Below, piece after piece: positions 5,371 to 57,024 of a DNA stretch of 60,423 nt (the stretch's first letter is position 1; each line of letters opens with the position of its first letter). The DNA lies in the NCBI GenBank assembly GCA_964398505.1, contig CAYNMZ010000002.1:1-60423 (forward strand). The letters are read 5' to 3'. Source of the DNA: an uncultured Spirochaetia bacterium (GTDB lineage: Bacteria; Oederibacteriota; PGYV01; CAYNMZ01). The notes under the pieces were generated by a model. The model saw only the letters and a program-made list of their open reading frames with translations, did not search any database and had not been told where the DNA came from. Position numbers and translations under genes: made by a program.

Positions 5371-5390
5371 AATATTTACAAGGGGTAATT

Positions 5391-31700: not shown

Positions 31701-31763
31701 TGAAATCCGGATTCCGGAATCAAGAACCGGGGCTTAGTAATTGACTCCGGACACCGGATTTCA
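31701..31763. repeat. Heptamer-built inverted repeat (23-bp arms, 20/23 complementary)
   Basis: TGAAATCCGGATTCCGGAATCAA ... TTGACTCCGGACACCGGATTTCA. Confidence 0.85.
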
Positions 31764-33086: not shown

Positions 33087-33112
33087 GAATCCGGAATCCG
33101 GATTCCGGATTC
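33087..33112. repeat. Perfect 26-bp palindrome made of heptamers
   Basis: GAATCCGGAATCCGGATTCCGGATTC is its own reverse complement. Confidence 0.92.
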
Positions 33113-40478: not shown

Positions 40479-40501
40479 TCACAGCGGACGCTTTACGATA
40501 G

Positions 40502-40534
40502 AAGCCCGGCAGGATTTCCTGCCGGGCTTTTTTT
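40502..40534 (+). terminator. Rho-independent terminator after csp
   Basis: AAGCCCGGCAGG-ATTT-CCTGCCGGGCTT followed by a T-run. Confidence 0.92.
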
Positions 40535-40644: not shown

Positions 40645-40673
40645 TTGACAAAACAGCCTTATAATGATAAAAT
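40645..40673 (+). promoter_or_regulatory. Promoter at the head of the chemosensory locus
   Basis: TTGACA, 17 bp, TG-n-TAAAAT. Confidence 0.78.
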
Positions 40674-40709: not shown

Positions 40710-41111
40710 ATGGGGATAAAGCAGTTGATTATTATTTTTTTGGTTATTGTTTTCGGTGCTTCATATCTTATCGGCGGGTCTGAGTCAATCAGCGAAAAAA
40801 TAGAAAAATATTTGGACTCTAATTTTAAGTATGACCCTGAAAACTACGAAAAGTACTCTTATTTAAACATTGTTTATATGAACCTTACCGCAAAATATGA
40901 CAGAGCCCTGCAGCTTATTGAAAAGTACGAGGCGCGGTTTGAAAAGGACGAGCAGAAGGCAAAGGCCCAGTTTCAGAGGGCGAGCGCCTATGACCGCAAG
41001 CTGGATGGTAAGAGGGCGAGGGCTGAGTACCAGAAATATGTTGACCTTTACCCTGAAGGACCCAATGCAAAAAAGGCACGGGAAAGAATAAACTTCCTAA
41101 AATTTTATTGA
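40710..41111 (+). CDS. Small membrane-anchored TPR-like protein (BamD/CpoB-like end)
   Basis: N-terminal hydrophobic anchor; AQFQRASAY...ARAEYQKYVDLYPEG..AKKA. Confidence 0.65.
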   Translation: MGIKQLIIIFLVIVFGASYLIGGSESISEKIEKYLDSNFKYDPENYEKYSYLNIVYMNLTAKYDRALQLIEKYEARFEKDEQKAKAQFQRASAYDRKLDGKRARAEYQKYVDLYPEGPNAKKARERINFLKFY

Positions 41112-41121
41112 AAATGGTGAA

Positions 41122-42162
41122 TTGATGGACAAAATAATTCTTGCGCTTATGACCGCCGTTTTATTTTTATCCTCATGCGTGTCAACGGGCGGTGAAGCCG
41201 GCAATTACGCTCAAAAGACTCAACAGGAAGAAGCGGACGATGATTTTGTAAAACAGGCGCCTATAGACGAAAATTACGTTGACACTGACGGCATAATAAT
41301 ACTTTCCCCGGGAGAATCAGAGGCGTCCGAGCTTGAGAAGTATATACTTGGCAGGAGAAAACAGGTGACAGAAGCCGGGGATGAAACAGAGAAAGGCACG
41401 GGCGAGGAGATAACCTTTGAATATGAGCCCGATTCCTCGGGAGTTTTGCTTGTAGAGTCCGAGTCAAATGCCACGGTTGACAGGGCGGGATTTGTCCTTG
41501 TGGAAAAAGCCGGGTTTATCAGCCAGAATTTCACTGAGGACGGTTTCGTTTATTCGCTTGACGAGCACAAGGAGCTTATTGCCGCGGGCGACATGGTTTA
41601 CATAAAGCTTACTGTAGGCAAGGGCGCGCCCAAAGGCAGGCAGTTTTCCATATATGAGGATTCCGAGGAAGTGGTGAACAAGCTTACGGGAGAGCCTATG
41701 GGAAAGCTGATAAAGTTCGTCGGCGTGCTGAAAATCATAGGCAATGTGGAGGACAATATTTACAGGGCCAAGATAACAAAGAGTTATGAGCCGATAAGGA
41801 ACAACTACAAGATAAAAACAAGGCAGGACATGCAGAAATACCACAAGGAAATATCCATGAAGGTGAAAAAAAAGAACCTTGCGGTCCGGGCAAACATAGT
41901 TAAGGTAAAGGACGACACAAAGAGCCTGAAAAGCACTGACCTGATATACCTGGACGCGGGTATTTCCTCCGGCCTGCTGCCCGGGGAAAAACTGGGTATA
42001 TACAGGCCGCGGCAGATAAAGGAAACAGGCAAGGAAGAGGAATATAACAGGATAGGCACCTGCCTCATAATGAACTCCATGCAAAATTCCGCGGTAGCAC
42101 TTATAGTCAAGCAGGACGATATAATAAGGGCCGGCGATATTGTAAAAACGCCTTTAAAGTAG
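41122..42162 (+). CDS. Lipoprotein with two FlgT-C/TsaP-like beta domains
   Basis: Lipobox LFLSSC; GDMVYI..G....FSIY....V....TGEPMG and DLIYLDAG.SSGL.PGEKLGIY repeats. Confidence 0.6.
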   Translation: MMDKIILALMTAVLFLSSCVSTGGEAGNYAQKTQQEEADDDFVKQAPIDENYVDTDGIIILSPGESEASELEKYILGRRKQVTEAGDETEKGTGEEITFEYEPDSSGVLLVESESNATVDRAGFVLVEKAGFISQNFTEDGFVYSLDEHKELIAAGDMVYIKLTVGKGAPKGRQFSIYEDSEEVVNKLTGEPMGKLIKFVGVLKIIGNVEDNIYRAKITKSYEPIRNNYKIKTRQDMQKYHKEISMKVKKKNLAVRANIVKVKDDTKSLKSTDLIYLDAGISSGLLPGEKLGIYRPRQIKETGKEEEYNRIGTCLIMNSMQNSAVALIVKQDDIIRAGDIVKTPLK

Positions 42163-42214
42163 GAAAAGATGCAAAAGCATTACCGGGCTTCTTACGGCTT
42201 GAGCGGCATCGCCA

Positions 42215-43027
42215 ATGATTGAAAAAGAAGGGTTTGAAAAGCTTAAAAATTTGGTATTTGCCGTCCGCGGCCTTGATGTGGGCCAGTACAAGGAAAATTA
42301 CCTAAAGAGAAGGTTTGCTGTCAGGATGAGGGCGCTTCAAATAAGTGATTACGGGGCTTACGCTTCTTTCCTTGAAAAAAATCCTCAGGAATTTGACATA
42401 TTGATGGATAAACTCACCATAAACGTCACGCAGTTTTTCAGGGATACCGAGGTTTTCAGCGAATTTGAGAATACCGTGCTTTTGGAACTTTTTGAAAACA
42501 AAAAAAACAGGCTGTGTATATGGAGTGCCGGATGTTCCTCTGGCGAGGAGCCGTATTCAATAGCGATTTCCGTGATGGAAACTGCTGAAAAATCGGGCAT
42601 AGGCAGCCTTGACCTTGAAATACAAGCTACAGATATTGACAATGCCGTGCTTTTCAAGGCGGTTTCCGGCAAGTACGAGGGACGAACGCTGGACAATGTG
42701 CCTGAAACCAGGAAAAAAAAGTATTTCAACTTTGACGGCAAAAATTATATAATAAATGAAGAAGTAAGGCAAAAAGTAAAGTTTATCAGGGCCAACCTGA
42801 TGGAACCCTATAAAACGGCATATTTTGACGTGGTTTTCTGCAGGAATGTGATTATTTATTTTTCCAGGGAGCTGCAGAAAAAGGTCATAGGTTTTTTTTA
42901 TGACGCTTTAAAGGAAGGCGGATATTTTTTCATGGGTAAGACAGAGACAATGCTTATGGAAATGCGCGAAAAGTTTGAATGCGTGAATATAAAGGAGAGA
43001 ATTTTCAGGAAGACCTCGCGGAAATGA
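42215..43027 (+). CDS. cheR: Chemotaxis protein-glutamate methyltransferase
   Basis: TINVTQFFRD, IWSAGCSSGEEPYS, ATDID, DVVFCRNVIIYF, MGKTE. Confidence 0.95.
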   Translation: MIEKEGFEKLKNLVFAVRGLDVGQYKENYLKRRFAVRMRALQISDYGAYASFLEKNPQEFDILMDKLTINVTQFFRDTEVFSEFENTVLLELFENKKNRLCIWSAGCSSGEEPYSIAISVMETAEKSGIGSLDLEIQATDIDNAVLFKAVSGKYEGRTLDNVPETRKKKYFNFDGKNYIINEEVRQKVKFIRANLMEPYKTAYFDVVFCRNVIIYFSRELQKKVIGFFYDALKEGGYFFMGKTETMLMEMREKFECVNIKERIFRKTSRK

Positions 43028-43078
43028 CATATTAATTTAAATCAGGCAGTATAAAAGAAGTGCAAAAGGCGGAACAAA

Positions 43079-44257
43079 ATGGAAACAGTACAGGATCATA
43101 TAAATCTCGGAATGGCGTTCACTGTAAGCAAGAATTACGCCATGGCCATAAAAGAGTTTGAGAAGGCGCTGTCCATAAACCCCGAGGACGCCGAGGTCCA
43201 TGCCCACCTTGCCAACGCCTACATATACAAGGGCGATTACGAGAAAGCTGTTGCAAGTTATGAGAAATCCCTAAAAATAAACCCGATGAATGTTTCTGTG
43301 ATAACAAAGCTTGGCAGGCTGTACGCTAACATGGGCAAGGCTGATAAGGCGCTTGAGGAATATAAGAAAGCCATAGAGATAAACCCTAATGACATCGCTG
43401 TCAGGCACTCGCTTGCGGACGTTTACGTGAAGCTTGAAAAATATGATGACGCGAGCAGGGAATACGGGTTGATACTAAAAAAGGAGCCTGAAAATACCGA
43501 GATTAGGTTCAAAATGGGTTATATTTTTGAGGCGCAGAAAAAATTTGTCGAGGCGGCCGCGGAATACGAGCAGGTTTTAAAGTCAAACCCTAAAAGCCCC
43601 GGAATAAACTCAATGTTGGGCAATGTATACAGGCACATGAAGAATTATGACAAGGCAATAGAGGCATATACAAGGGCGATAAAAGTCAACCCGAATGAAG
43701 CGGGAGTGGCTTTCAACTTGGGTGTGCTTTATTACGAGCGCGGCGAGCTGGAAAAGGCGCTTGAACAGCTGGAAAAAGCAAAGCAGAACAAGTTTAAAAA
43801 TCCTGAAGTTTATACGCTTACGGCTGAAATATACAATAAGCTCGGCAAAAAGACCGAAGCCATGCAAGAATACAAGAAAATAGCGGGTTCGGGTACCGCG
43901 GATCCCGAGACTCACAAGGCCATGGGTTTTGTTTTCAGCGAGGAAGGACAGCTGGACGATGCTATCAGGGAATATAATGCCGCGTTAAAGCAGAAAAAGG
44001 ACGATCCTGCCGTGTACGAGGCGCTGGGCCATTTATATTACAAGAAGCTAATGTACGGCGAGGCCAAGGAAAATTTCCTTAAAAGCGCGGAACTGGGAAG
44101 GGAAAGCGCCGATATGTATTACAAACTTGGTAACATTTCAATGAAGGAAAATGACCCTGCAAAGGCGGCCGATTACTGGAAAAAATCCCTGCGAATTAAT
44201 CCGTCAAATGAGATAATAAAAAAGAACCTCAAATTGCTTACCGGCGAAAGCCTGTAG
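43079..44257 (+). CDS. Cytoplasmic TPR-repeat protein (~10 TPRs)
   Basis: Repeated LG..Y...G.Y.KA...Y.KA..INP; no signal peptide. Confidence 0.88.
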   Translation: METVQDHINLGMAFTVSKNYAMAIKEFEKALSINPEDAEVHAHLANAYIYKGDYEKAVASYEKSLKINPMNVSVITKLGRLYANMGKADKALEEYKKAIEINPNDIAVRHSLADVYVKLEKYDDASREYGLILKKEPENTEIRFKMGYIFEAQKKFVEAAAEYEQVLKSNPKSPGINSMLGNVYRHMKNYDKAIEAYTRAIKVNPNEAGVAFNLGVLYYERGELEKALEQLEKAKQNKFKNPEVYTLTAEIYNKLGKKTEAMQEYKKIAGSGTADPETHKAMGFVFSEEGQLDDAIREYNAALKQKKDDPAVYEALGHLYYKKLMYGEAKENFLKSAELGRESADMYYKLGNISMKENDPAKAADYWKKSLRINPSNEIIKKNLKLLTGESL

Positions 44258-44265
44258 GGCCGTCT

Positions 44266-44868
44266 ATGGATGTCATAAAAAAACAGCAGAAAAGCCTCGG
44301 CGAGATACTTGTTCATTCCGGGCTGATAACGAGGGAACAGCTTGATGAGGCCTTGGCGGATCAGAAGCAAAGCTCGGAGCCGCTCGGCAAGGTGCTGGTC
44401 AGGAAGGGTTATGTAAGCGAGCATGACATAATGGACGCCTTAAAGGGCATGCTTGTCGTAGTAGTCCGGGCGGGCGGCGAGGATTTTGGCGTTGAGATAA
44501 TATTTGCTCGCGAGATACTCAATTACAGGAAAATAACGCCCCTGCCTGAAATGCCGCCTTATATACTGGGAATGATAAGCCTAAGGGATGAGATAATCCC
44601 TGTGATTTCTCTGGCAGGTATGGTTTTTGGCGGGCCCTGTGCGGCCGGTGAAGACTCAAAGATTATCGTTATTGAGCGAAAAAATGAATGCGTCGGCCTG
44701 CTTGTGGACTCGGTGATAGCCGTCAGGAACTTCTCAAAGGAAAATTTTGAGGACATGAAGAGAAGCATAATATCAAGGGAAAAGAAATACATTGAGGGCA
44801 TTATAAAGAACAAGGGAGAAATAATAACACTACTTAAGCCGGAATACTTCTTTTCCCGGAGGGATTAA
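44266..44868 (+). CDS. MshEN-like domain fused to CheW
   Basis: SLGEILVHSGLITREQLDEALADQ-5aa-PLGKVLVRKGYV, followed by CheW motifs (TPLPEMPPYILGMISLR, VGLLVDSV). Confidence 0.85.
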   Translation: MDVIKKQQKSLGEILVHSGLITREQLDEALADQKQSSEPLGKVLVRKGYVSEHDIMDALKGMLVVVVRAGGEDFGVEIIFAREILNYRKITPLPEMPPYILGMISLRDEIIPVISLAGMVFGGPCAAGEDSKIIVIERKNECVGLLVDSVIAVRNFSKENFEDMKRSIISREKKYIEGIIKNKGEIITLLKPEYFFSRRD

Positions 44869-47051
44869 TGGAAAATCAGCGGGAAAATCCGGGCATCGGC
44901 GAAAATGACGCCATTGGCCACAACAATGTCGGGGTATATTATTACTCAAAGGGCATGTTCCAGCAGGCAATAGAGGAATTCAAAAAATCCCTGTCAATAA
45001 ATCCGGGCTATATACAGGCTCAGCAGAATTTAAAGGCAGTCAATAAGCAGACCGGGATATACGACCGCGCCATACAGGCATATAAGAAGGTCCTGCAGCT
45101 GCGCGCGGATGACCCTGAAGCATATTACAATCTGGGCAAGGCTTTAAGCTATACCGGTGAATATGCAGCGGCCGCTTCCCATCTTGAGACGGCGCTGAAG
45201 ATAAACCCGGAGCATTTACCTGCCGTCAATTTGCTCGGATTGATATACATTAATAACGGCGAATATGACAAAGCTGTGGGAATACTTGGGCCCGCGACGC
45301 AAAAATACCCGAATTACGCGGAATTAAGAAATACGCTCGGCGAGACTTTCTATAAGATGGGACATTATGCCGAGGCTGAAGAACAGTTAAAGCTCGCGAT
45401 AAAGGCTGACCCTGAGAATTCAACCGCTTATTACACATTAAGCTTTGTATATGGCGAGATGAACAGGGAAGATGACGCCTCAGCGGCTTACGCTAAGGCG
45501 GTAGAGATAAATCCTTCATTTGTGCAGTATAACAAGAGTCTTTTAATAGATGTCTCGGATACCTGCGCGCCAAAAAGGGAGAATGAGGCTGAGAAAGCGC
45601 CTGAGGAAAGGAAAGAGGAAGCTTTTTTCAATCTCGCGAAGGTTTACAGGCTGAAGGGTTATATTGATGATGCCATAACGCAGATAAAAAGGACAATCAC
45701 CTATAACATAAAAAAACCCGACTATTACAATTTTTTCGGCGAACTGCTGATTAAAAAAGGGCTTGTTAAGGACGCGATAGAAATTTTCAGACAGACGCTT
45801 AAAATTGACCCTGATTTTGTTGAGGCTAAGGTCAATATTGGCCGAGCTTACAGGGAAATGAAGGAATTTGACAAAGCCAGGGGCGTTATGGACGCCATAG
45901 AGGAGGAAAACCCGGGGTATTCAAACATCAACCTGGAGAGGGGCATAATATCCTACAAGGAAGAGAAGTTGGATGAGGCAATGGTGTTTTTCAAAAAACA
46001 GATTGAGGTCGAGCCTTACAATGACGACGCTCACTACTATCTTGGTGTGTCCTATTACAGGAAAAAGGAATATGACGCCGCGATTACAGAGCTTCGCCGC
46101 GCGCTGGAACTGGTGCCTGATTACATAAAAAAGCCGGATGTAAACCTTTACCTGGGTCTTGTCCTGACGGACAAAGGCAGGAACGAGGAAGCCATAATAG
46201 AGTACCAAAAGGCGCTGTCGGTACAGCCCGACAACGCTGTGGCGCACAATTCAATGGGAGTCGCTTTCAAAAACCTCGGCAATATAGAAAAGGCAATAGA
46301 GGAATACAAGCGGGCTGTAGCTATAGATAAAAATTATTACAAGGCTTACAATAATCTGGGAGTAGCTTATTACAAGAAGAACTTTTTCAGTGAAGCTGAA
46401 AAATATTTCCAAAAGGCGCTTGAGATTGAGCCTAATTACGAGGTGGCTAAAAAGAACCTGGAAGCCGCCAGGAAAAAGGACTCTGTTTTCAGGGAAACAG
46501 CCGAAAAGATAAAGGAAAAACTGAAAACAGCCCCATCTGACGCGGCCCTAAGGTACGAGCTGGCCAATACGTCCAGAAATACTGGACAATTGAAGGACGC
46601 TATTGTAGAATATAAGAAGGCCATAGAAATTAAGCCTGATTTTATTGATGCGGCAATAAACCTGGGCGCCGCTTACCTTGAGTCAGGGGAATACGATGCG
46701 GCTATAAAGGCCTTTATTTCCGTTATTTCCAGGCAGCCGCTTAATGAAAAAGCTCATTTTATGCTCGCTGAAGCGTACCTGAAAAAGGACTGGTACGACG
46801 AGGCTGACATTGAGTTCCATAAGTCGCTTGAATTAAACCCTGAAAACGACGAGGTTTTTTTCAAGCTGGGCGAAGTTTACAGGAAAAAGGCCTGGTGGGA
46901 CGAGGCGACGGCCATGTGGAAAAAATACATTGACAGCAACCCGGAATCAGAGACCGCAAGACAGGCCCAGGAAAATATCAGGATGGTGGAGCTTTGGAAA
47001 AAGGAGCTTGTGATTTCGCCCTCCGCCGGGAAGAAGAAGATTATAAAATGA
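44868..47051 (+). CDS. Large cytoplasmic TPR-repeat protein (727 aa)
   Basis: Well over a dozen TPRs throughout; no signal peptide; TAATG overlap with the upstream gene. Confidence 0.88.
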   Translation: MENQRENPGIGENDAIGHNNVGVYYYSKGMFQQAIEEFKKSLSINPGYIQAQQNLKAVNKQTGIYDRAIQAYKKVLQLRADDPEAYYNLGKALSYTGEYAAAASHLETALKINPEHLPAVNLLGLIYINNGEYDKAVGILGPATQKYPNYAELRNTLGETFYKMGHYAEAEEQLKLAIKADPENSTAYYTLSFVYGEMNREDDASAAYAKAVEINPSFVQYNKSLLIDVSDTCAPKRENEAEKAPEERKEEAFFNLAKVYRLKGYIDDAITQIKRTITYNIKKPDYYNFFGELLIKKGLVKDAIEIFRQTLKIDPDFVEAKVNIGRAYREMKEFDKARGVMDAIEEENPGYSNINLERGIISYKEEKLDEAMVFFKKQIEVEPYNDDAHYYLGVSYYRKKEYDAAITELRRALELVPDYIKKPDVNLYLGLVLTDKGRNEEAIIEYQKALSVQPDNAVAHNSMGVAFKNLGNIEKAIEEYKRAVAIDKNYYKAYNNLGVAYYKKNFFSEAEKYFQKALEIEPNYEVAKKNLEAARKKDSVFRETAEKIKEKLKTAPSDAALRYELANTSRNTGQLKDAIVEYKKAIEIKPDFIDAAINLGAAYLESGEYDAAIKAFISVISRQPLNEKAHFMLAEAYLKKDWYDEADIEFHKSLELNPENDEVFFKLGEVYRKKAWWDEATAMWKKYIDSNPESETARQAQENIRMVELWKKELVISPSAGKKKIIK

Positions 47052-47386
47052 AAAATATCACGATAATAATTCCGCCGGCAAGGTTTGATAACGTGAAAAA
47101 AAGGCTCGTGGAAATCGGAGTTTGCGGCATGACCGTATCTGATGTCAGGGGCTTTGGATACGAGAAAAAACGCATGAAACTCCACGATGACAGGGAAATG
47201 ACAGTTGAGCTCTCGGAAAAGGTAAGGATTGACATAGCGCTTAAGGAAGAAGACGTGGAACAGGTTATTTCTGCCGTGACAGAGGAGGCCAGGACAGGCA
47301 GGCTCGGTGACGGAAAAATATTCATAAGCGAATTGACAGACGCGGTGAGGGTAAGGACGGGCGAGCGCGGGGAACACGCTTTGTAA
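47048..47386 (+). CDS. P-II family signal transduction protein, divergent T-loop
   Basis: 112 aa; GMTVSDVRGFG, K58, TGRLGDGKIF, RVRTGERG. ATGA overlap with the TPR stop. Confidence 0.93.
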   Translation: MKNITIIIPPARFDNVKKRLVEIGVCGMTVSDVRGFGYEKKRMKLHDDREMTVELSEKVRIDIALKEEDVEQVISAVTEEARTGRLGDGKIFISELTDAVRVRTGERGEHAL

Positions 47387-47387
47387 A

Positions 47388-47515
47388 GTCCGGAATCCGG
47401 AATCAAGGATAAAAGATAATTTTTATAATAAGGTTTTTGATACAAGAAGTAAAAAAACTCGCAATTGTTTTTTAAATGATTATGACTCCGGACTCCGGAC
47501 CACGGATTTCGGATT
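47388..47515. repeat. Heptamer-built inverted pair flanking an AT-rich spacer
   Basis: GTCCGGAATCCGGAATCA (47388-47405) versus TGACTCCGGACTCCGGAC (47483-47500): 16/18 complementary. Confidence 0.8.
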
Positions 47516-47535
47516 ATAAAAACGCGGAGGACAAT

Positions 47536-47901
47536 ATGGCAAAACGTGTGCTTATAGCGGATGACGCTTCTTTTATGAGGCTTATGCTTAAGAACATACT
47601 TGAAGGCGCGGGTTATGAAGTTGTGGGAGAGGCCGGAAACGGTAAGGAAGCCATACAAAAATACAGGGAATTAAAGCCTGATATGTTGATTTCCGACATG
47701 GTAATGCCGGAAATGGGCGGTATTGACGTCTTAAAGGAAGTGTTGGCGGAGTTCCCGGACGCGAATGTGCTTATATGCAGCGCGATTGGGCAGCAGGCGC
47801 TTGTTATAGAGGCCATACAGGCGGGCGCGAAGGACTATATTGTAAAGCCTTTTGAACAGTCAAATGTTCTTGAGACTGTGGCAAAAATAATAGGTAAATG
47901 A
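47536..47901 (+). CDS. cheY: Single-domain response regulator CheY (copy 1)
   Basis: VLIADDASFMR, SDMVMPEM, SAIGQQ, YIVKPF. ATG 47536 after GGAGG. Confidence 0.9.
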   Translation: MAKRVLIADDASFMRLMLKNILEGAGYEVVGEAGNGKEAIQKYRELKPDMLISDMVMPEMGGIDVLKEVLAEFPDANVLICSAIGQQALVIEAIQAGAKDYIVKPFEQSNVLETVAKIIGK

Positions 47902-47902
47902 C

Positions 47903-48526
47903 ATGACACAGGAAAAGCTAACAGATTTCCAGAGAGACGCGCTTAAAGAACTCGGCAATATTGGCGCCGGCAGCGCCGCCACGGCGCTTTCCCAGCTGAT
48001 AGGAAGGGATGTCGGCCTTGACGTGCCGCGTGTGGCCATAATACCCGTTGAAAAAATCGCGGAAAAGCTGGGTGCGCAGAAAAAAATAGTCGCGGCAGTA
48101 TATCTGCGCGTGTTCGGGGAGATAAAGGCAAGGACACTGCTCATATTCCCGCAGGAAAAGGTAATGCTGCTTCTTGACCTCCTGATGAAAAGGGAACTCG
48201 GCCAGACCAGGGAGTTCGGCGAGACAGAGCAGTCGGCGTTAAAGGAAGTGGGGAACATAATAATATCCTCATATCTTAACGCGATTGCCAAATTCATAGG
48301 GTTGAATTCAGTGCCTTCGGTGCCTGCTTTGGCAGTTGACATGCTTGATGCTATATTTGAGACAGTATCAACAGAAATGGCGGAAATGGGGCCTGAAGCC
48401 ATGCTAATAGAAAATGAAATGACAGAGGAAGTAACAAAGGTTACCAGCACATTACTTATAATACCTGATAAGGATGCCATGGGCCGCATACTTAAGGCCT
48501 TGAACGACACGATGAAAGGCGCGTAA
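47903..48526 (+). CDS. cheC: CheC phosphatase (copy 1)
   Basis: Two S/DxxxExxN motifs: DALKELGNIG and SALKEVGNII. Confidence 0.92.
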   Translation: MTQEKLTDFQRDALKELGNIGAGSAATALSQLIGRDVGLDVPRVAIIPVEKIAEKLGAQKKIVAAVYLRVFGEIKARTLLIFPQEKVMLLLDLLMKRELGQTREFGETEQSALKEVGNIIISSYLNAIAKFIGLNSVPSVPALAVDMLDAIFETVSTEMAEMGPEAMLIENEMTEEVTKVTSTLLIIPDKDAMGRILKALNDTMKGA

Positions 48527-48535
48527 GAGTAAAAA

Positions 48536-49009
48536 GTGGGCGCGATAAAGACCGCGGGCATGGGCGAGCTTAAAATCGGAGGCAACGGGGATACGTTGGC
48601 TGCCTACGGTATAGGTTCCTGCCTTGTGGTGATTTGCAGGGACAAATCAAGGCCGGTTGCCGGCATACTTCACGCCATGTTGCCGGAAAAGCCCGCGAAA
48701 AAAGCCGAAGCTGCGAAATACGTGGATTCAGGCATTGACGCTCTTGTAAAGGAAATGATAGGGCTGGGAACAGGCATTGGCGCGCTTGAGGCCAAAATAT
48801 TCGGCGGAGCCAGGATGTTTGACACAAAGCAGGAAGGCGAGACAATAGGCGAACGCAATATCAGAAAAGCCAGGGAAGTTCTTCAAAAAATGGGCATAAG
48901 AATTACCGGAGATGACACGGGAAGCACATACGGCAGAAATATTGAATATTCTGTCGATGAGAACAGGGCAGTGGTCCGCAGTTTTATGAGCGGCACAAAA
49001 ATAATATGA
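48536..49009 (+). CDS. cheD: Chemoreceptor glutamine deamidase CheD
   Basis: [41 protein letters not shown] start. Confidence 0.92.
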
Positions 49010-50301
49010 ACGGAGGAAAGATGCCGTCCAAAAAAGGCGGGTTCGGGATTGCCGGCAGGCTGGTATTGGCCAATATCTTGATAGGTTTTACTGTAGCCGC
49101 TGTTATGACCATATACATCTGGCTTGAGTCCGTAAGGATACCAAGCCCGGAGTTTTTTATATCAGCCTTGGCTGCCGTGCTTGTGATGGTGGCGGTGAAT
49201 ACAATTATAAGCGTTTTAATGATAACCGGGAAAACCCGTGAGATATCGGAAAAATGTGACAGAATATCATCCGGCGACCTTACTGTTGAGTTTAATTCGG
49301 ATGACAAATCCTTCGGCGCCATATCCTCGGCGCTTTCCAAGACCGTCGTGGGATTAAGGGAAATAGTTGGAAAAGTCAATGAGTCTACCGAAAGCATAAT
49401 GAATCTGGCGGAGAACCTCTCCGCCTCAACCCAGGAAATAAATGCCTCATCTGAGGAAATCTCATCCACTGTCCAGCAGATAGCGCGGGGCGTTGAACAG
49501 CAGGCTGAGCGTACTGTGGATACCTCACGTATAATGGAAAAGATGTCAACCTCAATTCAGGAAGTAGCCCAGAAATCAGAGGAAGTTCTCGCGGCTGCAA
49601 CATCGGCCAGGGACGCGACCGAAAAGGGCATTGGCACGGTCGGCGAAACCATGAAAAAAATGGACGACATAGTCGAGGCCACGAATGTGGCGAAAAATTC
49701 CATAATGGACCTTAGGAACTATTCTGAAAAGATAGAGGAAGTAGTAAATTTTATAACTGAAATCGCCGACGAGACCAACCTGCTGGCCCTGAACGCGGCA
49801 ATAGAGGCCGCACGCGCGGGTGAAGCGGGCAGGGGTTTTGCGGTAGTGGCAGACGAGGTGAGAAAACTGGCCGAACAGTCAGCTAACGCGGCCAAGGACA
49901 TAGAGAAGCTGGTTGAGGAAATACATGAGAAGACCGGCGCAGTTGAGAAGGCGGTTTTGACCGGCGTAAGGGAGACAGAGGAGGGTAAGAAAGCCGCGAA
50001 AATGAGCGGCGACTCGCTGAGAGCCATAAGCGAAGTTGTTGAAAAGACCGTCGGGCTTTCAAAAGAGATTTTCGCGCTTACGCGCGCGCAGGCCGAGGAT
50101 ACTGACAGGGTGGTCAAGGCCGTGGAGGAGATAGCGGCTGTGGCAGAGGAAACCGCGGCAGGCACTGAGCAGGCTTCTGCGTCCACGCAGGAACAGACAG
50201 CCTCAATGCAGGAAATAGCCGCCCAGGCGCAGGAACTGGCCCATACAGCAGAGGCGTTGAGGGCCGGTATTGGAAGGTTCAAACTGAAGGGGGGGCAATA
50301 G
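49006..50301 (+). CDS. Methyl-accepting chemotaxis protein lacking an extracytoplasmic sensor domain
   Basis: TM1, ~9-aa loop, TM2, HAMP, then a signalling domain with [34 protein letters not shown]. Confidence 0.95.
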
Positions 50302-50303
50302 CC

Positions 50304-50795
50304 GTGGAGAGGAAGGTTGTCGGATTTAAACTCGGCGGTGAAGAGTTCGCCTTTGACATAATGAGAGTTGTTGAAATAATAAAGATCAAGGAAATAACCG
50401 AGGTTCCCACAGCCCCTTCTTTTATAGAAGGAGTGATAAATTTAAGGGGTAAAATAATCCCTATAATAGACCTGCGTAGGCGTTTTAAGATGGAAGGCCG
50501 GGAAAGAGACAAGAAGTTCCGGATAATAATAGTGGAGCTCAGGAAAAGCCAGCTTGTGGGTGTAATAGTTGACGAGGTGGAAAAAGTAATGGTTGTGCAG
50601 GATGGGCAGATGATGTCGCCGCCTGCAACAGTCACAGAGGCCGGAGCGAGGTACATTGAGGCTGTGGCGAAAATTGAGGACAGGATAGTTGTAATTCTGG
50701 AAATAGAGAAGATATTTTCCGAAGAGGAACAGGAAGGCCTAAAGGACATAAATGAAATGGACGGAGGTAAAATTGAAGAAAGTACTGATAGTTGA
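50304..50795 (+). CDS. cheW: CheW coupling protein
   Basis: VVGFKLGGEEFAF, ITEVPTAPSFIEGVINLRGKIIPIIDLR. Confidence 0.95.
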   Translation: MERKVVGFKLGGEEFAFDIMRVVEIIKIKEITEVPTAPSFIEGVINLRGKIIPIIDLRRRFKMEGRERDKKFRIIIVELRKSQLVGVIVDEVEKVMVVQDGQMMSPPATVTEAGARYIEAVAKIEDRIVVILEIEKIFSEEEQEGLKDINEMDGGKIEESTDS

Positions 50796-51138
50796 CGACA
50801 CAAAGTTCATGAGGGACATATTGAGGGGCATACTCAAAAAAAAAGATATTGAGGTCGCGGCTGAGGCGGGAAACGGCCGCGAGGCAGTGGAAAAATACAA
50901 GGAAATAAAGCCCGACCTTGTTACCATGGACATAATAATGCCGGAAATGGACGGAATAGAGGCTGTAAGGAATATAATTGCCTTTGACCCGTCCGCGAGG
51001 ATACTTATGTGCAGCGCTATGGGCCAGCAGGCGCTTGTGATAGAGGCAATACAGGCCGGTGCGCGTGATTTTGTTATAAAACCATTCCAGCCTACAAGGG
51101 TTCTGGAAGCGGTGGACCGTGCCCTGCAGGAGGGCTGA
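50773..51138 (+). CDS. cheY: Single-domain response regulator CheY (copy 2)
   Basis: VLIVDDTKFMR, TMDIIMPEMDG, SAMGQQ, FVIKPF. TTG 50773 after GGAGG. Confidence 0.9.
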   Translation: MKKVLIVDDTKFMRDILRGILKKKDIEVAAEAGNGREAVEKYKEIKPDLVTMDIIMPEMDGIEAVRNIIAFDPSARILMCSAMGQQALVIEAIQAGARDFVIKPFQPTRVLEAVDRALQEG

Positions 51139-51140
51139 TT

Positions 51141-52208
51141 TTGTCTGAAAAAATCCGCGTGTTGGTTGTGGACGACTCGGCATTCATGAGGAAAGTAATA
51201 CCCCAGATAATACAGGAAGACACGTCCATGGAAGTTGTGGGAACTGCAAGGGACGGCAAAGATGCGTTCAAAAAGGCGGCGGAACTTTCACCCGACGTAA
51301 TAACAATGGATGTGGAAATGCCCGGCATGGACGGGCTCAGCACCATAGGCCTCATTATGAAGGAAAAACCCACGCCGGTAATAATGCTTTCAGCCTACAC
51401 GCCAAGGGGTGCGGAAATAACGCTGCGGGCGCTTGAACAGGGAGCCGTTGATTTTGTATGCAAGCCTTCAGGCGCTATATCCCTTGACATAAAAAAAGTG
51501 CAAAAAGAGCTGCATGAAAAGATACGGGCGGCCGCGAACATAGACATGTCAAAAATTACTCCTGTAGAAGAGGGCGGCGCGGAGGTCAGCAAGGAAAAAT
51601 TTCAGGATAAGACGCCGACCGTTATGGTCTGTATAGCATCATCCACCGGCGGTCCCAGGGCGCTGACTTCTGTTGTGCCAAAAATCACGAAAATGAGCCT
51701 GCCTGCCGCATATCTTGTTGTACAGCACATGTCAGAGGGTTTTACGGCAACGCTCGCGTCAAGGCTGAACTCGCAGTCTGTAATAAAGGTAAGGGAGGCA
51801 AAGGACGGCGAGGAAATACTGGCAGGCACAGCCTATCTCGCGCCCGGAAATTTTCATATGGAAATATTAAGGGACAATGGCAGGTATTTTATCACGCTCA
51901 ACCAAAAACCGCAAAAGAACGGTGTCAGGCCTTCGGCTGATTATACAATGGCTTCGGTAGCCGAGAGGTTTGAGGGTAAAAAGATAGGCGTTATACTCAC
52001 GGGCATGGGTAAGGACGGCGCCGAAGGCGCTGAAAAGATGAAAAAAGCCGGGGCTGTCGTGATGGCTCAGGACAGGGAAACAAGCGTGATTTACGGCATG
52101 CCGCGGGTTGTGACAGAGCGCGGTTTAGCTGACAGGGTTCTGCCGCTTGAAAGCGTGGCAGACAATATAATGGACGAAATTGAAAAGGCTATGGTGCCTG
52201 AAAAATGA
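51141..52208 (+). CDS. cheB: Chemotaxis response-regulated methylesterase CheB
   Basis: REC domain plus ASSTGGP, VQHM and LTGMGKDGA catalytic motifs. Confidence 0.96.
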   Translation: MSEKIRVLVVDDSAFMRKVIPQIIQEDTSMEVVGTARDGKDAFKKAAELSPDVITMDVEMPGMDGLSTIGLIMKEKPTPVIMLSAYTPRGAEITLRALEQGAVDFVCKPSGAISLDIKKVQKELHEKIRAAANIDMSKITPVEEGGAEVSKEKFQDKTPTVMVCIASSTGGPRALTSVVPKITKMSLPAAYLVVQHMSEGFTATLASRLNSQSVIKVREAKDGEEILAGTAYLAPGNFHMEILRDNGRYFITLNQKPQKNGVRPSADYTMASVAERFEGKKIGVILTGMGKDGAEGAEKMKKAGAVVMAQDRETSVIYGMPRVVTERGLADRVLPLESVADNIMDEIEKAMVPEK

Positions 52209-54208
52209 ATATGGAAGGATACAGGGAGGTATTCCTCGAGGAAGCTGAGGAAAACATAGGCAATATGAATTCTGAGCTTCTCGCCTTTGAGAAGGACACA
52301 CGGGATCTGACTCCGGTTGACGGGCTTTTCAGGGCAGCCCACACTTTAAAGGGCATGTCCGCCACAATGGGTTATGACAGGCTGGCGGAATTTACGCACG
52401 CGCTTGAGGACGCGCTGGACAGGATAAGGAGCGGGTCTTTAAAGCCGGAGCAGTCCGTCATCAACCTATTGTACAAGGGCGTTGACGCGGTGCAGGAGTT
52501 CGTCTCGTCCATAAAGGAAAACAACGTTGATTACTCAAAGAGCGCGGCGTCAATTATTGACGAGATAAGGCAGAATTTCAGCTCCGCGCCCGAAGCCGCT
52601 GTTACGGCAAAGCCAAAGCGCGCGGCAGGGGCTCCAAGTCTGGAAATTGAACAGCAGCTTTTGCTCGCGGCCGAGGAGCAGGGGCTTCATGTGCATGAAA
52701 TAGAGGTGAATATCGCCAAAACCTGCGCGTTCAAGAACGTGCGCGCTTTCATGGTCGTCAGAAACCTGTCAGAAAAGGGCGAAATAATAAAGTCCGTGCC
52801 TTCGGGCAGGGACATTGAGGAAGGAAACATAGAGGGCGCCTTAAGGCTTGGTTTTGTGTCCGCAATTGGCGCCGAGGAAATTGAAAAAATCATAATGAAG
52901 ATATCCGAGATTGAATCCGTTAGCGTGAGAACTCTCGGGACGGAAAAGCCGCCTGAAAATGCCGCTGCCAAGCCAGTGCCTCCGGAAAAGGCCGGCAAAA
53001 CAGCCTCAAAAAAGGACAAGGCCGGGGTAACACAGAGCGTAAGGGTCAACATAGAAAAAATAGACGCGCTTATGAACCTGGTGGGAGAACTTGTGATAAC
53101 CAAAATAAGGCTTGACCAGATAACCAGGGAAAAGAAATTCAATATGCTGGTGGAGGCTGTTGACGAGTTTGACAGGATAATAGACGACCTGCAGATAGAG
53201 GTGACCGACGTAAGGATGCTGCCCGTGTCCCAGATTTTTGACAGGTATCCAAGGGTGGTGCGCGATCTCGCCGCTGAAGCCGGAAAGCAGGTTGAGTGCG
53301 AGATAACGGGCGGCGACATAGAAATTGACAGGACCGTTCTTGAGGAAATAAACGAGCCTGTAATGCACCTTGTGAGAAACGCGGTTGCGCACGGAATAGA
53401 AACTCCGCAACAGAGGGAAATGGCCGGTAAAGCGAAAAAGGGCCTGATAAGGTTATCCGCGCGAAGGGAAAGAAACTCCGTGATAATTGAAGTGTCCGAC
53501 GACGGCCGCGGAATTCAGGTGGAAAAAGTAAGGCAAAAGGCGGTTGAAAAAGGCATAGTAACAAGGGAGAGGGCATCGCTCATGACTCCCGAGGAAATTG
53601 TGAACCTGGTCGCGCTTCCCGGATTTTCAACCATGGAAAAAGCCGATCAGGTCGCCGGCCGCGGCGTGGGAGTGGATGTGGTAAAGACCAAGGTTGAGGC
53701 CTTTGGCGGGGTTTTCAGGATAGAGAATTACGAAGGCGAAGGCTGCAAGTTTATAATGAAACTGCCGCTTACGCTTGCTATAATACAATCATTGCTTGTA
53801 AAATGTGGCGGCGCAGTTTACGCAATGCCGGTAATACACACCACAGAGACTATAGAGGTCCCGGCGGCTGACGTCAGGATGATACAGAAAAAAAGAGTGA
53901 TAATACTCCGCGGGGAGGTACTGCCGGTCGTGTCGCTGGCCGAACTGCTGAAAAAACAGAGGAAAGAAAGCGATATTATAAATCTCGTGATAGTTGAGGC
54001 GAGAGACAGGAAAATAGGCCTTGAAGTTGACAGCGTCGTGGGACAGCAGGAAGTGGCGATAAAAAGCCTGGGAGAATTCTTGAAATACGCAAAGGGCTTT
54101 TCCGGCGTGACGATACTGGGCGACGGCTCAATAAGTCTTATAATAGACATACAGGCACTGCTTGAGACAGGAACACTTACCGGAAGTATTGACCAAAATA
54201 ACACGTAA
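52205..54208 (+). CDS. cheA: Chemotaxis histidine kinase CheA
   Basis: Hpt FRAAHTLKGMS, P2 domain, HLVRNAV.HG, DDGRGI, PGFST...SGRGVGVDVVK-like G boxes, C-terminal CheW-like P5. Confidence 0.97.
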   Translation: MNMEGYREVFLEEAEENIGNMNSELLAFEKDTRDLTPVDGLFRAAHTLKGMSATMGYDRLAEFTHALEDALDRIRSGSLKPEQSVINLLYKGVDAVQEFVSSIKENNVDYSKSAASIIDEIRQNFSSAPEAAVTAKPKRAAGAPSLEIEQQLLLAAEEQGLHVHEIEVNIAKTCAFKNVRAFMVVRNLSEKGEIIKSVPSGRDIEEGNIEGALRLGFVSAIGAEEIEKIIMKISEIESVSVRTLGTEKPPENAAAKPVPPEKAGKTASKKDKAGVTQSVRVNIEKIDALMNLVGELVITKIRLDQITREKKFNMLVEAVDEFDRIIDDLQIEVTDVRMLPVSQIFDRYPRVVRDLAAEAGKQVECEITGGDIEIDRTVLEEINEPVMHLVRNAVAHGIETPQQREMAGKAKKGLIRLSARRERNSVIIEVSDDGRGIQVEKVRQKAVEKGIVTRERASLMTPEEIVNLVALPGFSTMEKADQVAGRGVGVDVVKTKVEAFGGVFRIENYEGEGCKFIMKLPLTLAIIQSLLVKCGGAVYAMPVIHTTETIEVPAADVRMIQKKRVIILRGEVLPVVSLAELLKKQRKESDIINLVIVEARDRKIGLEVDSVVGQQEVAIKSLGEFLKYAKGFSGVTILGDGSISLIIDIQALLETGTLTGSIDQNNT

Positions 54209-54224
54209 ACAGGGAGCGTAAATA

Positions 54225-54848
54225 ATGTCTGATTCGCAGCTTTTGCATTTGACAGAGGCCCAAGTAGACGCATTAAGGGAAGTGGGAAACATAGGTGCGG
54301 GACACGCGGCCACGGCGCTTTCCCAGCTCATAAAGAAAAAAATAATGATATCTGTGCCCGAGGCCAAGGTAATAGCTTTAAAAGATGTGCCAAACCTGAT
54401 AGGCGACTCCACGAGCATAGTGGCAGGCATAGTGATGAACGTCCTGGGCGACGTGACAGCCAAAATCCTGCTGCTTTTAACAAGGGAGTCGGCGCTTTCT
54501 CTCGCGGACATGCTGCTCCAGAAAAAAGTGGGTTCCTCAAAAGTGCTCTCCGAAGTCGGCAACTCGGCTATCAAGGAGACCGGCAACATATTGTCTGGCG
54601 CCTACATGAACGCGTTAAACGAGTTTCTGGGACTTATGCTGCTGCCCTCTGTCCCAAACCTTGTATTTGACATGGCAAGCGCCATACTTGGTTCCATATC
54701 CGACGGGTTTGAGGGCATGTCGGACAGCATCCTTTCCATAGAGACGCAGTTTTCCGAGCCGAATGAAAAGGCGATAAAGGGTTATTTGCTTCTGATACCC
54801 GACATAGCGTCAGTGAGCGTGCTGCTACAGGCGATAAAGGTTAAGTAA
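54225..54848 (+). CDS. cheC: CheC phosphatase (copy 2)
   Basis: DALREVGNIGAGHAAT and SAIKETGNIL motifs. Confidence 0.92.
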   Translation: MSDSQLLHLTEAQVDALREVGNIGAGHAATALSQLIKKKIMISVPEAKVIALKDVPNLIGDSTSIVAGIVMNVLGDVTAKILLLLTRESALSLADMLLQKKVGSSKVLSEVGNSAIKETGNILSGAYMNALNEFLGLMLLPSVPNLVFDMASAILGSISDGFEGMSDSILSIETQFSEPNEKAIKGYLLLIPDIASVSVLLQAIKVK

Positions 54849-54915
54849 AAAAAAGCAAAATCTTCGGATTGAATCTTTGAAGAAAATGCTCGAATTTGAG
54901 CAAACGGAGAATTGA

Positions 54916-57024
54916 ATGATATTCGCGCTTGACATAGGAACAAGAAAAGTGGCTGGCCTGATAGGCGGGGAAAAGGACGGCAGGGTAGTCATATCGGCAT
55001 CGGCTGTTCGCGAGCATGAGAAGCGTGCCATGCTTGACGGCCAGATACATTCCATACAGGGCGTAAGCTCGATAGTGGCGCGTATAAAGTCCGAGCTTGA
55101 GGAAAAAACAGGCGTAAAATTGCGGTCAGTTGTGACTGCGCTTGCCGGACGCAACCTGCATACGGAGAGCGCCGCGGCAGTTATCAGGAAAAAAGGCGAG
55201 ATAACGCGTGATGACATTTCCATAGCGGAACTTACCGCGGTCAGGGAAGCGTGCACGAAGCTTGAGGACTCGAAAAAAAAGCAGTATTATTGCGTGGGGT
55301 TCTCGCCTGTTGAATACATGATAGACGGGGAAGCGACAAAGTCACCGCTCCAGCACCCCGTAAAGGAATCGTTTTCCGTTTCCGTAATTGCCACGTTCCT
55401 GCCAAGGCCCGCGCTTGACAGCATGATAGCCGTATTCAGGAACTGCGGGCTGGAAATGGAAGCGATAACGCTTGAGCCTATAGCCGCCCTGAACGTCACC
55501 ATACCCGAGGACATGAGGCTTTTAAACCTCGCGCTTGTGGATGTGGGCGCGGGCACTTCAGACATAGCTGTGACCGAAAAGGGAAGGATAACCGCCTATG
55601 GAATGATACCAAAGGCGGGAGACGAGATAACCGAGGAAATATGCCACAGGTTGCTTGTGGATTTTAACGAAGCTGAAAGGATAAAAAGGTCGGCTGAGTC
55701 AGGGCCTGTGGAATACAGGGATATTTTTAACAACCTTAATACGCTGGCCGCGCAGGATTTCGTTTCCATTGTGTCTGATAAGGCGTCCGAGATAGCGTCT
55801 GAAATAGCGGATGCCATACTGGAACTGAACAAAAAGCAGCCTGCGGCAGTTGTAATGGTGGGCGGAGGCAGCTCGCTCGCGATACTGCGCGAAAAGGTGG
55901 CTGACAAGCTCGGTCTCCCGCGCAACCGGGTGGGAAGCAGGATGCCTGAAAATGTCATGCCAATAGACGGGCTTCCTCCGGAATTAAAGGGAGCTGAGGG
56001 TATTACGCCGGTTGGCATACTGGAAACAGCGCTTTCGGGCAGGGGCCTTGGTTTTGTTGACGTATACCTTAACGGAGAAAAGGAATATATAGTGAACCTT
56101 GAGCAGGAAATAAAGGTAATGGACGTGCTTGTGTCGGCCGGGCTGGACATGAAAGCCCTGTACGGCAGGCCGGGCAGCTCCATTACATATACCCTGAACG
56201 GCAAGCTGGGAATAATACGCGGCCAGAAGGCTGAACACGCGAAAATATTCATTAATGGCGTGGAATGCGACATATACAGGCGTGTTAGCAGGGGGGACAA
56301 GATATTCATCACTGCCGCAAAGGACGGAAGGGACGCATCGGCTAAAATAGGCGACGCGCTTCCGCCTGATTCGTTCATGACCGTGGAGATAAACGGGAGA
56401 CCTTTCAGGGTGGAACCCGTAATATACCTTAATAACAGGCAGGTGGCCGCTGACGAACCCCTGCCTGACAGGGCTGAAATAAAAACAGAGTATCCCGTGA
56501 CGGCCGAGGAAATACTTACAAAGGCAGGCTACGGCATCAGCAAGGGCGGCGAGCGGGACATAATAATAACACTGAACTCCGAGCCAGTGGTGTTAAAGCA
56601 GAGGAATTACAGGCTGAAGGCCAACGGTTCTGATATAAGCCCGGATTACAGGGTAAAGAGCATGGACAAGCTTGAATACAGTGACACTCCGTCGTTTTTC
56701 AGGATCAAGGATTTGACTGGCAATATGCCGCCGAAAAAGATGAGGATAAAGATAAACGGCAGGGAATTTGAGATAGAGACAGTAAGGCAGGAAATAACCA
56801 TGAACGGAAGGAAGGCCTCGCCCGATGAGTTCATAATAAACGGCGCGAACATAGAGGTCAGGATGTCCGAGGAGAGGCCGCTTTTATCTAGCATATTCAG
56901 GGTTTTCCCCATAGACTCGCAGAAAATGCGCGGCAAGCTGCTTGAGCTTAAGGTTAACGGTGAGAAAGCCGGCTACACTACTCAGCTTTCCGAGGGCGCT
57001 GAAATAGAAGTGAACTTCATCTAG
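54916..57024 (+). CDS. FtsA-like actin-fold ATPase with C-terminal beta-grasp-like repeats
   Basis: ALDIGTRKV, LEPIAA, VDVGAGTSD and VGGGS actin-fold motifs. The ~320-aa tail carries repeated I/VxxNG units. Confidence 0.8.
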   Translation: MIFALDIGTRKVAGLIGGEKDGRVVISASAVREHEKRAMLDGQIHSIQGVSSIVARIKSELEEKTGVKLRSVVTALAGRNLHTESAAAVIRKKGEITRDDISIAELTAVREACTKLEDSKKKQYYCVGFSPVEYMIDGEATKSPLQHPVKESFSVSVIATFLPRPALDSMIAVFRNCGLEMEAITLEPIAALNVTIPEDMRLLNLALVDVGAGTSDIAVTEKGRITAYGMIPKAGDEITEEICHRLLVDFNEAERIKRSAESGPVEYRDIFNNLNTLAAQDFVSIVSDKASEIASEIADAILELNKKQPAAVVMVGGGSSLAILREKVADKLGLPRNRVGSRMPENVMPIDGLPPELKGAEGITPVGILETALSGRGLGFVDVYLNGEKEYIVNLEQEIKVMDVLVSAGLDMKALYGRPGSSITYTLNGKLGIIRGQKAEHAKIFINGVECDIYRRVSRGDKIFITAAKDGRDASAKIGDALPPDSFMTVEINGRPFRVEPVIYLNNRQVAADEPLPDRAEIKTEYPVTAEEILTKAGYGISKGGERDIIITLNSEPVVLKQRNYRLKANGSDISPDYRVKSMDKLEYSDTPSFFRIKDLTGNMPPKKMRIKINGREFEIETVRQEITMNGRKASPDEFIINGANIEVRMSEERPLLSSIFRVFPIDSQKMRGKLLELKVNGEKAGYTTQLSEGAEIEVNFI

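Follow-up and report, generated by a model that had tools for sequence, protein, structure and literature searches.

A P-II family gene within a chemosensory operon of an uncultured bacterium, and its che-linked relatives

Introduction

What does a P-II protein do in the middle of a chemosensory operon? Few signal processors in biology are as widespread as P-II proteins, and dedicated target classes such as AmtB, NAGK, PipX and SbtA have revealed ties between metabolism and particular processes. The question is raised by a 60,423-nucleotide stretch of DNA from an uncultured Spirochaetia bacterium (contig CAYNMZ010000002.1; this whole stretch is called the window below). It contains a gene for a 112-amino-acid (aa) P-II family protein that lies among chemotaxis (che) genes, directly after the gene of a 727-aa protein made of tetratricopeptide repeats (TPR), called TPR727 here (TPR~730 for the protein and its relatives together). 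We report that the window protein is a genuine P-II of the GlnB/GlnK type and that it very probably belongs to a subfamily dedicated to che operons. We also weigh, more tentatively, what such a protein may sense and which partner it may act upon.

Results

The window protein has the P-II fold

The window open reading frame does encode a protein with the P-II fold, of the GlnB/GlnK type. It matched the Pfam P-II profile PF00543 with 92.3 bits (cutoff 25, E 2.8e-26; residues 1-106 on profile positions 1-102), and its top sequence match among solved structures was the Aquifex protein 2eg1 (E 1.3e-30, residues 1-112 on 1-112). All of the named solved-structure matches were P-II nitrogen regulators (GlnB/GlnK type), and one chain was labeled only 'Signaling protein'. 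An AlphaFold2 monomer model built on 52 relatives had a mean predicted local distance difference test score (pLDDT) of 89.2 and a beta-alpha-beta-beta-alpha-beta order (strands at residues 2-8, 29-40, 50-65 and 90-95, helices at 10-22 and 67-81), with low confidence confined to the apex of the T-loop (pLDDT 53). Both the ~112-aa fold of the P-II superfamily and its long T-loop between beta2 and beta3 are present in the model. The 50 top fold matches in the PDB were all GlnB/GlnK proteins with template modeling (TM) scores of 0.8-0.87. The likeness to canonical GlnB/GlnK proteins (Aquifex 2eg1, E. coli GlnB and GlnK, S. elongatus P-II and A. brasilense GlnZ) extends to length, a gap-free alignment and 38-47% sequence identity. 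The ratio of nonsynonymous to synonymous substitution rates (dN/dS) among relatives of the gene was 0.02-0.12 (median 0.08, 28 pairs). Such strong purifying selection means that the gene is not a chance open reading frame.

The alignment with E. coli GlnB is gap-free and thus the residue numbering carries over 1:1, as claimed in an initial annotation made from the DNA letters. That annotation had also listed the ATP-binding elements G35-F-G37, K58, T83-G84, G87-D-G-K90, R101 and R103 as kept and P9, Y38, E39, H46, D47 and M51 as substitutions, and each of these residues was found in the alignment. The residues of the inter-subunit ATP/ADP cleft are all there (G27, T29, G35-x-G37, K58, T83-G-x-x-G-D-G-K90, F92, R101 and R103). 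At the positions that canonical proteins use for 2-oxoglutarate or for targets, the window P-II has P9, A11, Y38, E39, K41, H46, D47, M51 and K58. It therefore lacks the full 2-oxoglutarate residue set of canonical GlnB/GlnK (K/R9, Q39, K58 and Gly41), and none of the T-loop target and modification residues Y46, R47 and Y51, nor F11, is present. The NCBIfam GlnB/GlnK equivalog models scored the protein far below their cutoffs (NF007946, 106 vs 181 bits; NF008111, 93 vs 202 bits). SbtB-type proteins are marked by a neighboring transporter gene, sbtA, and by a CGPxGC extension at the C-terminus. Neither was found, as the window P-II ends at residue 112 (…GERGEHAL) and there is no transporter gene nearby.

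Relatives occupy the same slot in che operons

In a protein search with the window P-II, 25 clusters were 52-100% identical to it, below which identity fell abruptly to the 43-47% of ordinary P-II proteins. When the DNA context of four of these relatives (P0020, P0017, P0025 and P0022) was read, each P-II gene had a ~730-aa gene before it and cheY after it, and the operons were syntenic throughout. In contrast, the nearest ordinary P-II looked up (P0029) was encoded directly after an ammonium transporter gene (amtB). We define the same slot as the gene order TPR~730, P-II, CheY, CheC, CheD.

Larger collections gave the same result. Among the matches listed in a one-genome-per-species scan there were 80 P-II loci, of which a single group member, L010 (an uncultured 'Spirochaetia' metagenome-assembled genome), had the same operon, whereas the remaining 79 ordinary P-II loci had no such synteny; the genome scan with the clade alignment was dominated by a non-specific C-terminal pattern and gives no reliable genome count for the system. 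A profile search of 1.84 billion representatives returned 13,003 P-II family representatives, among which the che-linked group was essentially one, P0068, with cheY-cheC-cheD downstream of its gene. Note that other top profile matches have a different architecture: P0066, P0069 and P0070 carry two or three tandem P-II domains per chain (247-362 aa), and P0067 (182 aa) has one full P-II domain after a partial one.

Metagenomes were scanned with a DNA pattern encoding G-[FY]-G-[FY]-[EQ]-K, then 138 nt, then G-D-G-K, which matched only che-linked loci among 95. Of its 35 matches, 30 were in the TPR~730, P-II, CheY, CheC context, including the window itself (L103). The other five were three GlnB-like proteins with Phe or Tyr at position 38, one weak match and one gene that is not a P-II gene. 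The three GlnB-like proteins (L111 253-588, L118 3241-3576 and L120 391-726) are otherwise GlnB-like P-II proteins (GFG[FY]QKGHREIYPGSEY), and their short contigs carry no che genes. Hence an aromatic residue 38 alone is not diagnostic of the che-linked subfamily. A further search with a P-II of the more distant clade B (see below) gave ~78 further clusters, of which the divergent P0418, P0415 and P0409 were again in the same slot.

Taken together, the searches gave more than 40 distinct loci in at least three branches, with no exception among signature-bearing relatives with usable flanks. Linkage of orthologues to che genes was the check that the initial annotation had asked for, and every signature-bearing relative with enough flank was found between a ~730-aa TPR gene and cheY. 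No linkage to amtB, glnA or nif was seen in any che-linked subfamily locus examined. From these gene orders we conclude that a che-dedicated P-II subfamily very probably exists.

Two clades, and a locus that lost the gene pair

CheA homologues of the window formed a block of ~50 clusters at 57-72% identity followed by a drop to 41-44%. The block members with names are Candidatus Goldbacteria/Goldiibacteriota, the lineage of the window, and the nearest CheA proteins outside are from Negativicutes. Within the block, the TPR and P-II genes are both present in L094. In the 42% CheA tier, L095 (clade B) has the order TPR737, P-II, CheY, CheC, CheD ... CheA, CheC, with dprA and topA behind it, an arrangement shared with Goldiibacteriota. 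The P-II gene of L095 is at 5128-5466. Full-length alignments of the L095 and window proteins gave identities of 40% for TPR, 47% for P-II, 42% for CheA and 35% for CheR. CheY1 was the best-conserved protein between the clades (64%). These comparisons indicate that the che linkage of P-II is older than the lineage of the window and is also found in at least one unclassified sister lineage.

In a neighbor-joining tree, clade A, to which the window belongs, and clade B had bootstrap values of 90% and 100%, and the two were joined in the best tree with 40% only. By raw pairwise identity they were not joined, being 45% identical to each other and 43-45% identical to ordinary P-II proteins. The common origin of the two clades therefore rests mainly on synteny, because the P-II sequences alone give weak support.

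One member of the CheA block, L093, is without the TPR~730 and P-II genes, and the rest of its che operon is intact. Comparison of L093 4863-5292 with L005 7795-10344 (80% identical) showed that precisely the 2,550 bp holding both genes are replaced by 430 bp, within which a frameshifted remnant of the P-II 3'-end is recognizable (GKIFISD / RIRTG).

These loci bear on the simplest alternative, that the protein is a general nitrogen regulator of the cell that stands in the operon by chance gene order. The source pipelines annotated it as 'nitrogen regulatory protein P-II', but we consider this explanation highly improbable. The slot is conserved across lineages whose CheA proteins are just 42% identical, the GlnB/GlnK equivalog scores given above are far under cutoff, the residues of canonical target use (R47, Y46, F11 and K/R9) are lost, and the P-II gene was lost together with the TPR gene while the remainder of the operon stayed.

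Residues that set the subfamily apart

The residue comparison covered 54 non-identical che-linked proteins and 105 ordinary P-II proteins. Residues G27, T29, G35, G37, T83, G84, D88, G89, K90, F92, R101 and R103 were kept in 54/54. In contrast, K/R9 was present in 100 of the 105 ordinary proteins and in none of the che-linked proteins, and the same contrast held for F11 (76/105 vs 0/54), R38 (87/105 vs 0/54, with Tyr or Phe in 53 and Val in one), G41 (100/105 vs 0/54, with Lys, Val, Arg or Ser instead) and Y46 (85/105 vs 0/54), and R47 was reduced from 98/105 to 3/54. The subfamily also has Lys in place of D/E18 and Glu or Ser in place of K/R34. Position 39 is divided between Gln (28) and Glu (26) and position 58 between Lys (28) and Arg (26), whereas Y51 is found within the subfamily only in clade B. 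Uridylylation of Tyr51 is relevant only where GlnD exists. The comparison gives a consistent picture, in which the subfamily would keep its ATP/ADP site intact and would have a changed 2-oxoglutarate pocket and a different target surface.

The weight that the initial annotation had given to individual residues stands in part. The substitutions are real, but Q39E and Y51M belong only to the sub-clade of the window, as Q39 is found in 28/54 and Y51 in the sister clade. R38Y is present but was down-weighted as a key functional change, since 2-oxoglutarate binding does not depend on R38, as Methanococcales GlnK proteins with Ile38 bind ATP and 2-oxoglutarate normally (PMC8395244).

In solved P-II structures Arg9 and Lys58 form salt bridges with 2-oxoglutarate, which is also bound by the backbone of Gln39 and Gly41, and Gln39 completes the Mg coordination (PMC8395244). 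Lys58 and Gln39 are key 2-oxoglutarate ligands, and F11 is a target-contact residue (PMC6908673). The che-linked proteins might still be carbon/nitrogen sensors that bind MgATP plus 2-oxoglutarate much as canonical P-II proteins do and have only acquired a chemosensory target, such that the operon would answer the carbon/nitrogen balance. All members have either K58 or R58, Q39 is kept in 28/54, the Mg-ATP site is complete, residues 39 and 41 make their contacts through the backbone (PMC8395244), and the K41 or R41 of clade A could substitute for the lost K/R9. We nevertheless think this unlikely, as Gly41 is absent from 54/54 and the E39 of the window protein puts a carboxylate where 2-oxoglutarate or K58 pairs.

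The pocket might instead have been reshaped to bind another effector, either a cyclic nucleotide (as in SbtB and PstA/DarA) or another organic acid. Substitutions affect every pocket-lining position (9, 38, 39 and 41), and parts related to cyclic di-GMP (c-di-GMP) abound in these operons (a CheW with an MshEN-type motif, GGDEF in clade B and HD-GYP in L005). However, the B-loop that holds ATP or ADP (T-G-x-x-G-D-G-K) and residues F92, R101 and R103 are 100% kept, the named structure matches (bar the one 'Signaling protein' chain) and all best fold matches are of the GlnB/GlnK type, and no SbtB-like C-terminal extension is present, which together make a switch of effector improbable.

The chemosensory operon of the window

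The P-II gene lies midway in a run of 17 genes (40710-57024; Table 1). These look like one operon because a near-consensus promoter-like site and a strong terminator-like hairpin precede the first gene and there is no convincing terminator within the run. CheA, CheW, a methyl-accepting chemotaxis protein (MCP), CheY, CheR and CheB are all above the Pfam threshold together and are accompanied by two CheC proteins and CheD, which identifies the run as a chemosensory operon. The first two operon genes are syntenic in L001, L004, L005 and L007. The start of CheY1 is likely at the downstream ATG given in Table 1, because the Response_reg domain does not start until residue 25 in the long open reading frame and orthologues are 120-123 aa.

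Table 1 Features of the operon and of its P-II gene, in window coordinates
Feature	Position	Strand	Basis or remark
Strong terminator-like hairpin of the cold-shock gene	40500-40531		Before the promoter-like site
Promoter-like site TTGACA-17-TAAAAT	40645..40673	+	Ahead of the operon; consensus scan only
First two operon genes: 133-aa protein (signal peptide, TPR-like region) and 346-aa predicted lipoprotein	40710..42162	+	Unknown family (lipoprotein)
CheR methyltransferase	42215..43027	+	Pfam
392-aa all-TPR protein	43079..44257	+	Pfam; orthologues in all loci
CheW with N-terminal MshEN-type c-di-GMP-binding motif (predicted)	44266..44868	+	NF053729, 72.5 bits vs cutoff 38, plus Pfam CheW
TPR727, cytoplasmic all-TPR protein (upstream partner gene of P-II)	44868..47051	+	Pfam TPR repeats, residues 7-709
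Purine-rich ribosome-binding-like stretch GGGAAGAAGAAG	47027..47039	+	Inside the end of the TPR gene, 9-21 nt upstream of the P-II start
ATGA start/stop overlap of the P-II and TPR727 genes (translational coupling)	47048..47051	+	ATG 47048-47050, TGA 47049-47051
P-II family gene, 112 aa, TAA stop	47048..47386	+	Che-linked P-II subfamily, clade A (Goldiibacteriota type); T-loop base G-F-G-Y38-E39-K-K
Repetitive extragenic palindrome (REP)-like 18-nt inverted repeat pair, P-II to cheY spacer	47388..47500	.	Genome-wide intergenic motif, not locus-specific
CheY1, 121 aa	47537..47901	+	Probable true start ATG 47537 (MAKRVLIA, GGAGGA before), not the longest-ORF (open reading frame) start 47476
CheC1	47903-48526	+	Pfam
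CheD	48536-49009	+	Pfam
MCP with two N-terminal transmembrane helices	49006..50301	+	Pfam MCPsignal and hydropathy scan
CheW2	50304-50795	+	
CheY2	50752-51138	+	
CheB	51141-52208	+	
CheA (Hpt-P2-dimerisation-HATPase-CheW)	52205..54208	+	
CheC2	54225-54848	+	
702-aa FtsA/PilM-like actin-fold protein	54916-57024	+	Last operon gene

The only MCP of the operon has almost no periplasmic loop between its two helices and hence no extracellular ligand-binding domain, and the operons of clade B carry no MCP gene at all, none being present in the interval from cheD to cheW. The MshEN-CheW fusion was also found at L005 7204-7815, L094 1897-2496 and L095 1877-2608 (NF053729 54-72 bits, cutoff 38), and thus in both clades. 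A c-di-GMP-binding CheW, if real, would be a direct second-messenger input to the chemosensory array. The TPR727 protein has no transmembrane segment in a hydropathy scan. Its orthologues form a specific family of conserved length (702-768 aa in all clades) with a mean column identity of 0.66 and conserved patches (residues 19-90, 421-530 and 630-680 of TPR727).

As regards the output of the operon, the window contains no flagellar genes, and the FtsA/PilM-like gene stands at the operon end. A ~700-aa FtsA/PilM-like protein also closes most of the operons of the relatives. The periphery of these operons is variable and rich in c-di-GMP and pilus-type parts: a GGDEF protein follows CheC2 in clade B (L095 12921-14021), an HD-GYP protein precedes CheR in L005 (3862-5214) and L093, and a 767-aa fusion of a T2SSE ATPase with TPR lies upstream in L132 (1-1923) and L133 (1-1181).

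No amtB, glnA, nif or ure gene was found among the open reading frames scanned with Pfam across the 60-kb window. The initial annotation was therefore right that no amtB or nitrogen gene is nearby; the sole nitrogen-related gene is that of a NAD synthetase 30 kb upstream. The rest of the scanned window is ordinary chromosome (uvrD, nadE, pyk, rpsB-tsf-pyrH, uppS, dxr, ispG, proS, cspA and dprA). The region 25-32 kb upstream of the P-II gene encodes the NAD synthetase, which is glutamine-dependent (14782-16416), a cNMP-binding protein (16451-16927) and a GGDEF protein (21721-23082), with no evidence of a link to P-II. Glutamine-dependent NAD synthetase is a known class of P-II target in other bacteria (PMC7196632).

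Gene junctions and the candidate partner

The overlap of the P-II start with the TPR stop, an ATGA claimed by the initial annotation, was read directly in the sequence (Table 1). Stretches similar to the ribosome-binding-like sequence of the window (AAGAAGAAG) lie upstream of P-II in L004 and L130. The distance from the TPR stop to the P-II start was -4 to +19 nt in 27 of the 30 distinct measurable loci. The P-II to cheY spacer was longer and more variable (19-161 nt). In the window this spacer contains an 18-nt inverted repeat that flanks 77 AT-rich bases. A locus-specific regulatory hairpin was considered and rejected, as the REP-like motif is also at other intergenic sites in the window. 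The palindromic motif TCCGGAATCCGGA occurs in the intergenic spacers at 31706-31758, 33090-33109 and 47388-47500, and the window has 16 matches to it at two or fewer mismatches vs 1.2 expected.

The tight or overlapping junction in 27/30 loci and the joint deletion in L093 link the TPR~730 gene to the P-II gene. The T-loops might alternatively act on a core Che protein, such as CheY1, CheA, CheC/CheD or the MshEN-CheW, for example by sequestering CheY or by gating the use of ATP by CheA. The cheY1 gene is always next after the P-II gene, CheY1 is the protein best conserved between clades (64%), and P-II proteins bind many unrelated enzymes (PMC7646526). However, the P-II to cheY spacer is looser than the TPR to P-II junction, and in L093 the che operon persists without P-II, the TPR gene having been lost alongside. 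A core Che partner is thus possible but doubtful.

A tentative mechanism

The reading that we favor, as plausible but short of probable, is that the protein senses adenylates, has an altered 2-oxoglutarate pocket and docks by its T-loops on the co-translated TPR scaffold, and so tunes CheA. In such a scheme the P-II trimer would read the adenylate state (ATP vs ADP), and its response to 2-oxoglutarate would be weakened or changed. The rewritten T-loops would bind an operon partner reversibly, the likeliest being the co-translated TPR727 scaffold. Docking would then alter the control of CheA by an array made of the sensor-less MCP, the putative c-di-GMP-binding CheW and CheA itself. The input of the pathway would be the metabolic state of the cell plus c-di-GMP rather than an external ligand. 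P-II action on motility and on c-di-GMP enzymes has a precedent in A. brasilense GlnZ (PMC7646526).

Cytoplasmic inputs are suggested because the MCP has no periplasmic domain, the MshEN-CheW is found in both clades, the TPR/P-II junction is tight and c-di-GMP parts are present in the relatives. A more speculative step, which we regard as rather unlikely, is that the TPR~730 and P-II pair together with the c-di-GMP-binding CheW forms a new cytoplasmic input module that replaces the ligand-binding domain of the chemoreceptor. An array with such a module would follow adenylate or metabolite levels sensed by a P-II trimer instead of an outside chemical.

Several observations weigh against an adenylate sensor on a TPR scaffold. 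K58 or R58 is kept, Q39 is present in half of the subfamily and E39 could still coordinate Mg, such that 2-oxoglutarate binding is possible. The Gly41 and Gln39 contacts to 2-oxoglutarate are made by the main chain, which is available to any residue. Translational coupling means co-expression, not contact, and the co-deletion in L093 is a single event on adjacent genes, which proves that the pair is dispensable, not that its members interact. Finally, the common origin of clades A and B is weak from the P-II sequences alone (neighbor-joining support of 40%, and of 14% without the T-loop).

Discussion

The window P-II shares with canonical GlnB/GlnK proteins the ATP/ADP cleft, the B-loop, the C-terminal R101 and R103 and the length of the T-loop. 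It differs in the absence of K/R9, F11, R38, G41, Y46 and R47 and in having E39 and M51. Its gene is not beside amtB, glnA or nif but inside a chemosensory operon, where it is coupled to a TPR gene, and its equivalog scores are far below the cutoffs.

SbtB (encoded with sbtA), PstA/DarA, the carboxysome-linked CPII and NifI1/NifI2 are P-II paralogues that are hard-wired by gene order and have altered effector or target specificity, and the window P-II may be likened to them in principle. These paralogues are tied to transporters, cyclic di-AMP, carbon concentration and nitrogenase, and to our knowledge none is tied to a chemosensory pathway. Unlike proteins of the SbtB type and its like, the window P-II keeps the canonical ATP-binding B-loop and has no SbtB C-terminal extension. 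Other metabolic inputs to CheA-CheY signaling include the phosphotransferase system acting on CheA, energy taxis receptors and c-di-GMP effectors acting on Che proteins. We know of none among these inputs to chemotaxis that involves a P-II protein or a TPR scaffold.

No published account of a che operon with a P-II gene was found, and the nearest link in the literature is A. brasilense GlnZ. Nothing relevant was found in literature on P-II Q39E, PII-like chemosensory proteins or Goldbacteria chemotaxis. GlnZ resembles the present case in the influence of a P-II protein on motility (aerotaxis) and on c-di-GMP signaling (PMC7646526). In contrast, GlnZ is a general canonical P-II that acts on unlinked enzymes (PMC7646526), whereas sequence comparison suggests that the window protein is a dedicated paralogue encoded in the che operon itself. 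The operon-embedded P-II points to an undescribed route by which metabolic state may be fed into a chemotaxis-type pathway.

With a P-II paralogue in the che operons of a whole candidate phylum and of a sister lineage, energy or carbon state would be tied directly to CheA-type signaling, and the adjacent, predicted c-di-GMP-binding CheW hints that another cytoplasmic signal may enter there as well. The subfamily also offers a natural experiment on the P-II effector pocket: K/R9 and G41 are gone without exception, residues 39 and 58 differ between members and the ATP site is untouched. If the P-II does act within such a cytoplasmic input module, it would be the first known to serve a chemosensory array as subunit or as regulator, and the classes of P-II target would gain a further one in the TPR proteins.

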